UHGV virus genome: UHGV-1834803 | DNA length: 42,379 nt | Strand: one strand, 5' to 3' | Source: a virus | In this document: one piece after another, positions 33,530-36,969 of the stretch | Layout: each line of letters starts with the position of its first letter | Numbering within the stretch: position 1 is the stretch's first letter | Notes under the pieces: model-generated | Database searches by the model: none | What the model was told of the DNA's origin: nothing | What the model saw: only the letters and a program-made list of their open reading frames with translations | Position numbers and translations under genes: made by a program

Positions 33530-34765
33530 TTAACCAAATATTTTTTGAACAACTTCACGAGCCGCTTGCGCAGAAGCTGAAGGGAGTTTGTTAATGAAAG
33601 AACGCTCAATACCTGTCACAAAGTCGCCTCGCATCATTCCAATCTTGGCCGACAACAAAAGCTCACGAGGCCCAATTGGCTGGCTGATAAGGTGTTCTTC
33701 ATATCCATCGCGAACGATACCGGCAAACTTAACCATCTTTTCAGCGTATTCATCCACGATGCCGGCATTTATCAACATGTTGATCTCTGCCTCTTTGCTC
33801 ATGTATTTCACATTCGAAACGATGCCAAAACGTGAAAAGTTCGCGGCGTTCTGGATGTTTGTACCCTGGTACAAGCCGGTTTCATCACCAGAACCGTTTG
33901 TGTTGCCAGTGCCAATGAAAGCAAACCGTTCATGCGGAGTAATGCGACGCCATTCTGGAGTTGCCTCTTTGATGACCAACGCCTCACCTTCCAGCACTGG
34001 CTGATACACGCCAAGAATTTGTGGAAACGCAAAGTCGTATTCATCCGCGAGGTAAACCCAGCCATGCTTCATTGCGAGCGCAAGCAAGCCAGGCTCGAAA
34101 TACGTAGAGCCATCACGCGCCAGAATTTGCCCCGTAACATGTGCCTCTTCCATTGATGCTGTATGTTGGGCACGGATCAACGGACGATTGAGCAAAGCAC
34201 ATAGCTGTGTAGGCAATGACGATTTGCCTGTTCCTGCATGACCCCACAAATAGCCAGGTATGCCAAGTTCAAGCATCATGAAAATATCTTTGATCAGTTC
34301 GAAGTCGCCATATACGTAGCCCTTCTTCACTTCTGGAACGAACTCTGGATACGGCGTATTGACGTTGACGCTAACCATGAGCGGCGTCCCACGTTTTGTT
34401 CCGAGTTCTTCCACCGTTACGTTTAGCAGTTCGTGAGCTGCGACCAGATCTGTCTTGTACTCAACTGTGCCTGTGTAACCAGGGCTACTGGTCAAGCCAG
34501 AAGATTTGGCCATTTCGCTTTTTTGCTCGGCACGTTTAGCTTGAATTGCATCAAGTGCCTTTTTCGATAGCGTTGGTTCATCTGGAAACTGCGTTGTGTA
34601 CATTTTCAGTACGGTGTCAGGATCGGCATCTTTTACTGACTCAGGAATGCCCTCGCAATTACCATTGGCTACATGGGACTTAAAATAGTGAAATGATTTG
34701 CCGCACCACTTGCAAACAAGGTAATCAGAAGGATTTTTTTCATTTTGCAGTGCAGTAGTCGTCAT
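33530..34765 (-). CDS. AAA+ ATPase (CobS/MoxR-like) with N-terminal Cys/His cluster
   Basis: Walker A GHAGTGKS, Walker B VYLADEYD; N-terminal CKWCGKSFHYFKSH...NCE. Confidence 0.7.
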   Translation of the reverse strand: MTTTALQNEKNPSDYLVCKWCGKSFHYFKSHVANGNCEGIPESVKDADPDTVLKMYTTQFPDEPTLSKKALDAIQAKRAEQKSEMAKSSGLTSSPGYTGTVEYKTDLVAAHELLNVTVEELGTKRGTPLMVSVNVNTPYPEFVPEVKKGYVYGDFELIKDIFMMLELGIPGYLWGHAGTGKSSLPTQLCALLNRPLIRAQHTASMEEAHVTGQILARDGSTYFEPGLLALAMKHGWVYLADEYDFAFPQILGVYQPVLEGEALVIKEATPEWRRITPHERFAFIGTGNTNGSGDETGLYQGTNIQNAANFSRFGIVSNVKYMSKEAEINMLINAGIVDEYAEKMVKFAGIVRDGYEEHLISQPIGPRELLLSAKIGMMRGDFVTGIERSFINKLPSASAQAAREVVQKIFG

Positions 34766-34860
34766 GCGTTTTTCCTTTGTTCTCTAATGAGCGTTCAACT
34801 TCTTATATAAATATACCATTAACTATCGTAAGTGGTTACTTATCATTAAGGCTGTTTTAT

Positions 34861-36969
34861 TCACTTCAAAATGATACGAGATAGTTCAGTAACTACAGAT
34901 GAACCAAGACTATCAACGCTCGTTACCAGGGCATGATTTGAGTAAAATCTCTCCGGTGCGTCAGTCATGATGCCAATTGCCATCAAATCAATGTCAGTCT
35001 GCGTTTCAATTTGCTTCGCAACCGAACGCAAATGAGCGTCAAAACCTCTCCCAACAGCCCACGGCGCGCCATCGCTCAGAACAAGCATGATCTTCCTGTC
35101 CTCCAAGCGACCGGAAAATAACGATGCAAGGCTGGCTATGCTTTCACCATCCACGTTATTAAGAAGTGGGAATGTGTAGCCTACGCACCCCATACGTGAG
35201 CGAACTTCGCGAGAATTTGCTTTTTCATTCCAATTTTTGATGATAGGTAGCATTAAAGATTCAAAGCGAGAGAACTCATATTTGATAGCCTTAAGTTCTC
35301 CTGCTGCCATATGACTGCCAAATGTAGTGAAGCCGGTGATAATGTTGGGAACATTTATTCGATCAAGTGCATCGGCGATGGTATATGCACTTGCAAGAGC
35401 TAGTTTTATCGTTTCGCCACTCATTGAACCCGATAAATCAATCACTTGTTGAACACAGGCGTTAACGGCTTTAGATTCTTCTTTTTTACGAAACACGCGA
35501 TCATCATTCATTGTTAATCTGTAGATACTTGAACCATGAATGCGCCCCCGACGCTGGCCAGGTATAAACTGAACTCTGTTTCTGCTTGCTATTGCACGTT
35601 CCAGGTCTTTTGCCAGCGTCGACGAAACACCTGACGAAAGGTGCTTTTCAATATATTTGTCGAAGAGTTGGTTGCCTTCAGGAACGATGCGATAACGGCT
35701 GATTGGATATCCACCTAAATCAATATCGGAGAATGTTTTAATAAGCCGTTTGATATGGGCTTCTGCCTGATCAATCGAGCCGATGAAGTCGTATGAGCGA
35801 TTGTATGGCCTGTATTCGCTTTTCGAGCTTTCTGTTAACTCGCTTTTAATCGTTTCGGATAGCGCATCTTCTGTCATGCCTCCGACTTCATCTTCCATGC
35901 TATCCAACTCCTCTAAAGCCTCTTCCAGACTCATTTTTGACGGAGTTGGAATGTCTGAAGAGCCGTCTTCTGTCGATTTTCTTTTTTCGTGGTCAGTGGT
36001 AAATGATTCTGACGCCGCGTTATCAGAAGCACCAGAATCTGATACCACTTTATCATTTTCTGTATCATCGAATATTGTTTCTGATGATTCAGAATTATCT
36101 GAATCATCACTGTCGTTATTATCATGTTTGTGCTTACTGTGTGATTCTGATTTGATAGATTTGTGATTATCTAACGCTGAGGGTGTCTCATGATCTTCGT
36201 TGTCTTCATTGTTTTCTCCAGAGGCATCCGTCTGGTCAGCGTCTGAAGGATCGGAAGTTTTTCCCGGAGCTGACTCCTTACCTTTGCTTTCACTTTCAGT
36301 GTCTTTGAGGATCTTAGCTATGGTCGCAGCCACCTTTACACAATCCTCGGTGCAAGACATGTTACGCACGGCCACATCGATACCATGTTCTTTTAATAAT
36401 GAAATTGGTTTCTCAATGACAGGCCAATATTCATCCATGAAATCTACGAACGGTGCTTGGCCATCCCAGGCTCTTACAACCGGACAGAGAAAGAAGTTTA
36501 GAAAAAGCGCGCGCTGATCTTTGCCACAATAAGCAATAGCCTCTGAAGCCTTTGGTTTAAAGACTTTTTCGATTATAAGGCGCTGAGTTGCCATCAGATT
36601 ACGTCTTGTTCCGTTAAAGACCTGACCCATTTTTCGCTCGATGAACACGTCTTCTAAGGCATTCCATAGCGACCAGGAAGGAACGCGTCCTTTTTCTCTC
36701 ATTTTGTTGGACACACGAATATCGGTAAACAAAATGTGAGCAACCTCATGATCGAGAAATCCGCGCACAGCATTCATCAATGCCGGTGTTGCGTTATCCG
36801 GGATTGATGGGATGTTTACGAGAATTGGCTCTCCATCATCGTTATAGCGTACATAAGCGTCGTCCCCTCGTTCTGCAACAGGGATGTTTTTACCTGAAAG
36901 GAGAGCGACTACTCGTTTTACACTGTCACGGAAGTCCTGAACCTCTTTGATGGAACGTTTTTTAGACAT
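34861..36969 (-). CDS. von Willebrand factor A domain protein (CobT-like)
   Basis: MIDAS motif DLSGSMSG in the C-terminal domain; central Ser/Asp/Glu-rich linker. Confidence 0.7.
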   Translation of the reverse strand: MSKKRSIKEVQDFRDSVKRVVALLSGKNIPVAERGDDAYVRYNDDGEPILVNIPSIPDNATPALMNAVRGFLDHEVAHILFTDIRVSNKMREKGRVPSWSLWNALEDVFIERKMGQVFNGTRRNLMATQRLIIEKVFKPKASEAIAYCGKDQRALFLNFFLCPVVRAWDGQAPFVDFMDEYWPVIEKPISLLKEHGIDVAVRNMSCTEDCVKVAATIAKILKDTESESKGKESAPGKTSDPSDADQTDASGENNEDNEDHETPSALDNHKSIKSESHSKHKHDNNDSDDSDNSESSETIFDDTENDKVVSDSGASDNAASESFTTDHEKRKSTEDGSSDIPTPSKMSLEEALEELDSMEDEVGGMTEDALSETIKSELTESSKSEYRPYNRSYDFIGSIDQAEAHIKRLIKTFSDIDLGGYPISRYRIVPEGNQLFDKYIEKHLSSGVSSTLAKDLERAIASRNRVQFIPGQRRGRIHGSSIYRLTMNDDRVFRKKEESKAVNACVQQVIDLSGSMSGETIKLALASAYTIADALDRINVPNIITGFTTFGSHMAAGELKAIKYEFSRFESLMLPIIKNWNEKANSREVRSRMGCVGYTFPLLNNVDGESIASLASLFSGRLEDRKIMLVLSDGAPWAVGRGFDAHLRSVAKQIETQTDIDLMAIGIMTDAPERFYSNHALVTSVDSLGSSVVTELSRIILK

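Follow-up and report, generated by a model that had tools for sequence, protein, structure and literature searches.

In the structures of the Brucella melitensis cobaltochelatase CobNST (9ujv, 9uka; bioRxiv 10.64898/2026.07.21.739949), a part of CobT termed the 'shaft' inserts into the pore of the CobS ring. Clusters of cobS- and cobT-like genes are also widespread in tailed viruses, for which hijacking of the host CobN has been proposed (Liu et al. 2021, PMC8651126), and the authors who described Vibrio phage ICP2 (PMC3037004), as well as those of cyanophage papers, took the genes for vitamin B12 synthesis genes. For jumbo phages, a MoxR ATPase and a vWA protein with an N-terminal metallopeptidase have been described and a role in virion assembly was proposed (Iyer et al. 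2021, PMC7824862). The pair analysed here is encoded on the minus strand of the virus genome UHGV-1834803, a stretch of 42,379 nucleotides (nt; referred to as the window) that is part of an SSU5-like phage-plasmid, and consists of a cobT-like gene (34861-36969, 702 aa) and a cobS-like gene (33530-34765, 411 aa). It is a catalogued member of a kind of viral gene pair described in 2021, and the literature found contains no experimental characterisation of it. The two proteins make up a CobS/CobT machine of the virus type and are not cobaltochelatase orthologues; the pair is read here, tentatively and with a probability of roughly 40%, as an early, replication-linked machine of a AAA+ ATPase and an adaptor carrying a MIDAS (metal ion-dependent adhesion site) that remodels, and possibly proteolyses, a protein client.

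The initial annotation, which was made from the sequence of the window, had described a AAA+ ATPase with an N-terminal Cys/His cluster and a protein with a C-terminal vWA/MIDAS domain and an acidic linker as a CobS/CobT-like pair, and the open reading frames (ORFs), domains and pairing all proved correct. The 702-aa protein belongs to the Pfam CobT/CobT_C superfamily, as it exceeds both gathering thresholds: CobT_C (PF11775) covers one end of the protein (1.5e-82, 277 bits, cut-off 21) and CobT (PF06213) the other (1.7e-27, 97.1 bits, cut-off 26.1). It also matched phrog_1576 (1.8e-299) and PDB entry 9uka_G (3.1e-17). The 411-aa protein is a MoxR-clade AAA+ ATPase of the CobS/NorQ/CbbQ group with complete catalytic residues, which matched Pfam AAA_5 (2.1e-15) and phrog_249 (2e-106); its residues 142-411 align with Brucella CobS (PDB 9ujv, 1.8e-25), and sequence comparison gave 0.0015 with NorQ and 4.7e-6 with CbbQ. 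Structure prediction supports the same type of pair. The AlphaFold2 models had a mean predicted local distance difference test (pLDDT) score of 89.3 for the CobS-like and 81 for the CobT-like protein, Foldseek gave template modelling (TM) scores of 0.87-0.88 between the former and both NorQ and CbbQ, and NorQ/NorD and CbbQ are the nearest structural relatives of the two proteins.

Despite this homology, neither protein scores as a cobaltochelatase subunit. The CobS-like protein reached 84.9 bits against the TIGR01650 equivalog (cut-off 558.55), and the CobT-like protein 75.5 bits against TIGR01651 (cut-off 759.05), with only residues 442-697 aligned; orthology to this characterised complex, the outcome that the initial annotation had named as contrary to its proposal, was therefore not found. 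An exhaustive search with the 702-aa protein returned 513 clusters at E<1e-30, and because the top 150 all scored at least 248 bits, compared with 65 bits for Brucella CobT, the protein is placed in a large separate family. No CobN is present among the 126 features of the fully annotated relative Cyrano (95% nt identity), and no CobN domain was detected in the window ORFs that were scanned. The ribonucleotide reductase of the window is of class Ia (NrdA/NrdB), which is not B12-dependent, so that no requirement of the element for B12 is apparent. The ratio of nonsynonymous to synonymous substitution (dN/dS) between SSU5 and the window was 0.055 for cobS (0.019 for its AAA+ module) and 0.039 for dnaE; for cobT, in which synonymous sites were saturated, the linker was the fastest-evolving part (dN 0.88). 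Both genes are under strong purifying selection, comparable to that on dnaE, in enterobacterial elements. To our knowledge E. coli neither synthesises the corrin ring de novo nor has CobN, and Vibrio cholerae, the host of ICP2, does not produce B12; in Salmonella and Klebsiella the route is the anaerobic one with CbiK. The sub-cut-off scores, the separate family, Cyrano without CobN and the class Ia reductase together show that these are not cobaltochelatase orthologues, and, with the purifying selection in hosts that by textbook knowledge lack CobN, they uphold the earlier view that cobalamin synthesis is unlikely. As the pair keeps a protease-like zinc site and has a zinc finger of a DNA-binding type, while CobN is missing from the phage family and (textbook knowledge) from E. 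coli, the pair probably remodels a protein rather than making B12. In Cyrano (OV696614.1; L001 15645-19084) the pair carries the labels 'cobalamin synthetase' and 'dimethylbenzimidazole phosphoribosyltransferase', which describe what the CobS and CobT of Salmonella, two unrelated proteins, do; this is probably a name-collision error.

The CobT-like protein is organised into an N-domain (aa 1-230; 36280-36969), an acidic linker (aa 231-345; 35935-36279), a segment aligned to the shaft (aa 462-503; 35461-35586) and a vWA domain (aa 504-702; 34864-35460), all on the minus strand. The N-domain alone still matches Pfam CobT (1.8e-21) and is modelled at a pLDDT of ~90 as a helix, three strands and a helical bundle, the layout of the M48C-like domain of Brucella CobT (bioRxiv 10.64898/2026.07.21.739949). 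The Ser/Asp/Glu-rich linker contains 48% D+E+S, has a net charge of -21 and is predicted to be disordered (pLDDT <50 over residues 233-339). The shaft segment aligns with Brucella Q373-R413 and has conserved G471, G475, L482, D489, R491 and F493. The MIDAS is complete (D511-x-S513-x-S515 at 35425-35439, with N605 and D633); its residues are invariant in an alignment of 45 sequences and align with Brucella D422, S424, S426, N518 and D546.

Within the N-domain lies HEVAH (aa 74-78; 36736-36750, minus strand), a zincin HExxH motif, followed by N103-x2-E106-D107-x3-E111 (36637-36663, minus strand); together, GFLDHEVAH...NxxEDxxIE resembles a gluzincin signature. Of 150 family representatives, 143 have an HExxH motif within their first 200 residues, and three of the seven without it are fragments. 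In the 45-sequence alignment, in which mean column identity is 34%, G70, D73, E75, E106 and E111 are invariant and H74, H78, N103 and D107 are conserved at 90% or more. The AlphaFold2 model places HEVAH in a predicted helix (62-81) and E106 and E111 in another (96-117). The motif is kept in SSU5, Rhizobium phage RHph_X66, Vibrio phage ICP2, roseophage CRP-810, cyanophage S-RIM14 (where the protein is a 'peptidase') and Gordonia phage Jams. Brucella CobT has RGLGDSMALRQARHN at the motif position, with SMALR in place of HEVAH, and retains the downstream Glu residues. A putative zinc site therefore appears intact in viral CobT where Brucella CobT has lost the motif. No Pfam peptidase family was matched by the 45 members, except for one weak DUF2201_N match (1/45), and a phmmer search of the PDB with the isolated N-domain gave chance matches only. 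A 'conserved hypothetical protein' in a Salmonella Typhimurium record from a phage collection (AB571791.1, 31364-31855) matches aa 1-187 of the CobT-like protein (33% identity, 4e-10); since only the N-domain is matched, the zincin-like domain may also exist without the vWA part.

The CobS-like protein has a zinc finger domain (aa 11-70; 34556-34735), a spacer and the AAA+ module (aa 142-411; 33533-34342), again on the minus strand. In the module the Walker A motif GHAGTGKS (175-182; 34220-34243), Walker B D241/E242 (34034-34048), sensor-1 N288, the Arg-finger R312 and sensor-2 R367 are invariant among 65 homologues. The N-terminal Cys/His cluster (C18, C21, H26, H31, C37) is probably a Ros/MucR-type zinc finger, of which the window carries a divergent copy, as judged with hhalign and with Pfam on homologues. 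A five-sequence profile of the CobS N-terminus matched the Ros87 zinc finger (PDB 2jsp) with an hhalign probability of 92.7%, Pfam ROS_MUCR (PF05443) matched 13 of the 65 homologues (best 1.4e-6), and a ROS_MUCR domain is present in the precomputed annotation of two database relatives. The pattern C-x2-[CD]-x9-H-x3-6-[HC] occurs in 52 of the 65, whose clade consensus is KI-C-x2-C-G-x3-H-x-I-x2-H-L-x3-H-P...Y...FPDAP-x-LS; the isolated N-domain gave a sub-threshold Ros match in a phmmer search of the PDB (E 1.4). The window finger reads C18-x2-C21-x9-H31, with C37 inside a 12-aa insert and then the conserved Y56...FPDEP...S67, and probably uses C37 in place of the last His. By analogy with the Ros/MucR family the finger may bind DNA. 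Its nature, the zincin motif, the Cys4 ORF described below and the prior cataloguing of such pairs all go beyond the initial annotation.

The pair lies at the head of a replication cassette. The order on the minus strand is orf70, the cobT-like gene, the cobS-like gene, orf67, dnaE, a UvsY-like gene, a gp32-type single-stranded DNA-binding protein (SSB), a 5'-3' exonuclease and UvsX/RecA. The gap between cobT and cobS is 95 nt, orf67 starts 2 nt past the cobS stop and overlaps the start of dnaE by 26 nt, and this spacing suggests co-expression of the pair with dnaE. The pair had been placed next to the DnaE-type polymerase, and it is indeed upstream on the same strand; it is not the immediate neighbour, as the 67-aa orf67 (33324-33527, minus strand) intervenes. 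Loci were examined in Cyrano, SSU5, two kinds of Rhizobium phage-plasmid, Pseudomonas phage nickie and six metagenomic or genomic contigs (43-52% identity, including Ectothiorhodospira and Photobacterium prophages); these contexts were sampled singly, and a locus search of viral contigs with the CobT alignment gave only close SSU5-like relatives. In 10/10 lineages cobT-cobS is just upstream of dnaE, with the pair sitting between a ligase (or repressor) gene and dnaE, and the gp32-type SSB, 5'-3' exonuclease and RecA genes follow dnaE wherever the locus reaches that far. The interval between cobS and dnaE contains a sigma-70-like gene and/or small ORFs, usually one for a Cys4 protein.

Outside this lineage the neighbours differ. 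The ICP2 pair precedes genes for a primase, a helicase and PolA, the cyanomyovirus pair is situated between gp46 and the T4-type gp45/gp44 clamp and clamp-loader genes, and the CRP-810 and Gordonia phage pairs have mostly unannotated neighbours. The link to the replicase made in the initial annotation is real within the lineage (10/10), and DnaE is unlikely to be the client across the family, because related pairs accompany three polymerase families.

From homology, motifs, synteny and constraint, the following mode of action may be proposed. As in the Brucella CobSTN structures, six CobS subunits would form a ring, the CobT N-domain would dock on a CobS small subdomain, and the CobT shaft would enter the pore of the ring. 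ATP turnover would then rotate or pull the vWA domain, whose MIDAS would hold an acidic residue of the client. The client would be positioned between vWA/MIDAS and the N-domain, as is CobN in CobSTN, and would probably also be cut or held by the zinc centre of the N-domain; because the viral N-domain keeps a putative zinc site beside this client position, the pair is probably a processing machine as well. In this lineage the Ros/MucR-type finger on CobS would probably place the machine on DNA. A DNA-associated protein may thereby be remodelled or processed at the start of lytic replication, either for assembly or maturation of the phage replisome or for clearance of a host protein. Within the lineage, DnaE and the Cys4 protein are candidates for the client.

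A stronger version of this proposal can also be formulated, in which virus-type CobST is an unrecognised AAA+ protease or segregase that combines MIDAS capture with a zinc active site on an adaptor turned by the ring. In this lineage the finger would direct it to DNA, where it would remove a bound protein obstacle so that the DnaE replisome can start, and the cobaltochelatase CobST would be a derivative that has lost the peptidase site. We give this version an outside chance.

Several points weigh against the remodelling machine proposed here. Pseudomonas phage nickie has lost the HExxH motif (SEISK at this position), and four full-length representatives are also without it, so that proteolysis or catalysis is not indispensable to every member of the family. 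The N-terminus of the window CobS has no Pfam match even at E<=10, its finger being divergent, and Ros/MucR-like folds need not bind DNA. When 29000-38100 was scanned for promoters and terminators, the counts were the same as for shuffled sequence, and the operon structure is therefore taken from gene spacing only. Synteny within one phage lineage may reflect inheritance and not functional coupling, and phage early regions are in any case rich in replication genes. The absence of CobN from E. coli is textbook knowledge.

One alternative is that the pair is a dedicated maturation factor for a metalloprotein of the cassette and would load or remodel a metal centre, either in the PHP domain of DnaE or in the Cys4 protein, in the manner of NorQ/NorD or CoxD/CoxE. 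The initial annotation had put forward a replisome chaperone or metal-insertion function, which was itself inferred. The nearest structural relatives, NorQ/NorD and CbbQ, are client-specific activases, the Cys4 protein and dnaE come after cobS with 2-nt spacing and a 26-nt overlap, and the cassette is invariant in ten lineages, all of which would suit such a factor. We nevertheless consider it improbable, as it leaves the conservation of HExxH unexplained, and as a DnaE or Cys4 client is not general: viral pairs occur with PolA (ICP2) and with T4-type PolB replisomes, without the Cys4 protein.

Another alternative is host take-over or counter-defence, in which an early ATP-driven protease would eliminate a protein of the host, for instance a nucleoid-associated silencer, a part of the host replisome or a defence protein. 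The pair is at the start of an operon opposite a repressor-like gene, it combines a zincin motif with a targeting vWA domain, and the xenogeneic silencers MucR and Ros have a finger homologous to its own. This too is judged unlikely. Counter-defence genes usually vary, whereas this pair belongs to the conserved core and keeps its position; there was no significant PADLOC match to a defence system, and it is difficult to suggest a target shared by hosts that range from haloarchaea to E. coli.

A third possibility is that the pair is a chaperone-protease for virion assembly, a MoxR-type ATPase and vWA-metallopeptidase that fold or process structural proteins, as proposed for jumbo phages by analogy with p618/p892 of the Acidianus two-tailed virus (Iyer et al. 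2021, PMC7824862). The architecture is identical and the conserved zincin motif would suit a processing role. The gene order points elsewhere: the morphogenesis genes of Cyrano (135-26536) are far from the pair (43137-46576), with lysis, partition and replication genes between them, and in 10/10 lineages the pair is embedded between ligase (or repressor) and dnaE. What a Ros/MucR-type finger would do in the assembly of capsids or tails is not obvious, and the jumbo-phage examples are not confirmed as members of the same subfamily, so that an assembly role is regarded as quite doubtful.

Many hosts of other viral cobST genes (cyanobacteria, rhizobia, roseobacters, pseudomonads, actinobacteria, haloarchaea) have CobN, which counts in favour of a role as auxiliary metabolic genes, and the established knowledge of E. 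coli without CobN, of the CbiK route in Salmonella and Klebsiella and of V. cholerae as a non-producer of B12 counts against it. That role, in which viral CobS and CobT would replace or supplement the host subunits and thereby raise cobalamin production by the host CobN, for instance to supply a B12-dependent ribonucleotide reductase (Liu et al. 2021), is a published hypothesis (PMC8651126) resting on true homology to CobS and CobT, shaft and MIDAS included, and is very improbable here given scores 7-10 fold under the equivalog cut-offs, Cyrano without CobN, a class Ia reductase, purifying selection as strong as that on dnaE in these hosts, and an HExxH site that plays no part in chelation and is degenerate in the true cobaltochelatase.

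These distinctions matter as virome analyses routinely class viral cobST clusters with the vitamin B12 genes, and since the mid-2000s cobS has figured among the core 'auxiliary metabolic genes' of cyanophages. Should the conserved zinc site be catalytic, many 'cobalamin' annotations in metagenomes would be mistaken and the pair would represent a new type of ATP-driven, MIDAS-targeted protease. An inducible SSU5-like phage-plasmid offers a clean system for the function of viral CobST, because E. coli is tractable and neither makes corrins nor has CobN.

The genes that flank the pair in the cassette have features of their own. Orf67 (phrog_6337, 2.9e-46) is the short form of a conserved Cys4 protein, with the motif GCFGS-x13-C-x2-C-x5-CH where the family pattern is GCFGS-x11-13-C-x2-C-x5-C. 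In five other lineages phmmer matched it (2.5e-10 to 4.8e-5) with the 170-190-aa proteins encoded upstream of dnaE. The long form (about 170-200 aa) is directly upstream of dnaE in nickie, in the Rhizobium phages and in four of the six contigs, and in the Photobacterium prophage the protein is of the short form, its gene lying further upstream by one small ORF. The protein may assist the polymerase as an accessory factor and bind zinc or an iron-sulfur cluster. A sigma-70-like gene is present between cobS and the Cys4 protein gene in most relatives (L003 10257-10901, L010 11182-11856, L011 11254-11877, L094 9185-9832) and is lacking in the window lineage, in nickie and in several other relatives. 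The dnaE-type gene (29831-33349, minus strand, 1172 aa), the downstream gene of the cassette, matches Pfam PHP, DNA_pol3_alpha, finger and HHH_6. Its C-terminal ~190 aa (29831-30400) form a domain like the family-4 uracil-DNA glycosylases (UDG), with TIGR00758 matching residues 1053-1168 (3e-7) and Pfam UDG at 0.0011. Such a tail is found on dnaE in most of the lineages, and Pfam marks the fusion in five of the six contigs; by eye, the tail of the window DnaE has no Cys cluster like the one that holds the iron-sulfur cluster in family-4 enzymes. The UvsX/RecA gene (25780-26853, minus strand) encodes 357 aa in the window, 779 aa in Cyrano (L001 4817-7156) and 686 aa, with an intein match, in the Ectothiorhodospira prophage (L011 18375-20435); the differences in size and the intein match suggest a polymorphism of intein presence and absence.

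Upstream of the pair, orf70 (37068-37280, minus strand; phrog_2627) is the first small ORF of the leftward operon. Relatives have a small ORF at the same place, yet no homology is detectable across lineages, and orf70 was for that reason dropped as a component of the system. Between orf70 and cobT is a 9-bp inverted repeat, CTGCGCGAA...TTCGCGCAG, with a 15-nt loop and no T-run (37023-37055, minus strand), which lies 54 nt upstream of the cobT start and could be a regulatory RNA or DNA structure. A divergent helix-turn-helix repressor-like gene (37532-37918, plus strand) faces the operon. It adjoins a tyrosine recombinase gene (37913-39016, minus strand), annotated as an integrase, which also faces the leftward operon; the enzyme may resolve plasmid multimers and not integrate, as 255/255 occurrences are on plasmids and none on a chromosome. 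An ORF of 420 aa (39647-40909, plus strand), in a stretch of low GC content (0.35 compared with ~0.45 elsewhere) between a glutaredoxin gene and the tRNA genes, has no Pfam match and only a marginal PADLOC match to PtuB (0.0009), and looks like inserted cargo. The tRNA genes Ser-TGA, Thr-TGT, Tyr-GTA and Asn-GTT (41102-41755, minus strand) belong to the element, because Cyrano has a similar set; at the matching place Ser, Thr and Asn only are annotated in Cyrano, and Asn only in SSU5.

The assignment of the window to the SSU5-like phage-plasmids follows from near-identity and synteny with known members and from plasmid location. The UHGV-1834803 region shares 97% nt identity with Escherichia phages CMS-2020a and PhiR41_1, 95% with Cyrano and 80% with Salmonella phage SSU5, and the cobT-cobS region was found at 255 places in 244 of 5426 complete E. 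coli genomes, all of them plasmid-borne, on plasmids of ~106-125 kb. The genes are already in the databases, under the RefSeq names 'cobaltochelatase CobT-related protein', 'AAA family ATPase', 'hypothetical protein' and 'dnaE', and the element and its viral relatives have been catalogued (PMC8651126, PMC7824862). The literature on phage and viral CobS/CobT pairs was found to contain no experimental role or test, in agreement with the initial annotation, which had stated that such pairs have no established role, and nothing was found that combines SSU5 or DNA polymerase III with cobS/cobT.

Compared with Brucella CobNST, the phage CobS shares the AAA+ module with all catalytic residues, and the two CobT proteins have a common layout of M48C-like N-domain, acidic disordered linker, shaft and vWA domain with MIDAS D/S/S/N/D, at ~30% identity over the aligned parts only. 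The phage pair is in a replication setting, not in a cob operon, on an element without CobN; the phage CobS has ~140 extra N-terminal residues, including the Ros/MucR-type finger, and the phage CobT has HExxH in its N-domain where Brucella CobT has SMALR. The finger follows the pattern of the Ros/MucR domain (PF05443, 2jsp), C-x2-C-x9-H-x3-5-H and then ...Y...(F/L)P..(Y)P, but differs from MucR in being an N-terminal appendage of an ATPase without the MucR oligomerisation domain, and the window copy has its 12-residue insert. NorQ/NorD, for maturation of nitric oxide reductase, and CbbQ/CbbO, a Rubisco activase, share the logic by which a MoxR-clade ring works with a MIDAS adaptor on a single client; a zincin N-domain is missing from these adaptors, the known clients are metabolic enzymes absent from the phage, and sequence similarity is weak. 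Midasin (Rea1/MDN1) is a single giant eukaryotic polypeptide that acts in ribosome assembly and, unlike the phage pair, has no peptidase-like domain or zinc finger. The pair also resembles the viral cobST and MoxR plus vWA-metallopeptidase pairs (PMC8651126, PMC7824862; ICP2 ORF41/42, PMC3037004), with which the two-gene unit and the zincin-vWA adaptor are shared, and the zincin-vWA pair is also present in cyanophages ('peptidase' and cobS), ICP2, roseophage, Gordonia phage and haloarchaeal viruses. The published proposals of B12 boosting and virion assembly fit the SSU5-like setting poorly. Unlike the other viral cobST genes, those of the SSU5/Nickievirus/rhizobiophage lineage combine a Ros/MucR finger on CobS with a fixed cobT-cobS-Cys4-dnaE cassette.

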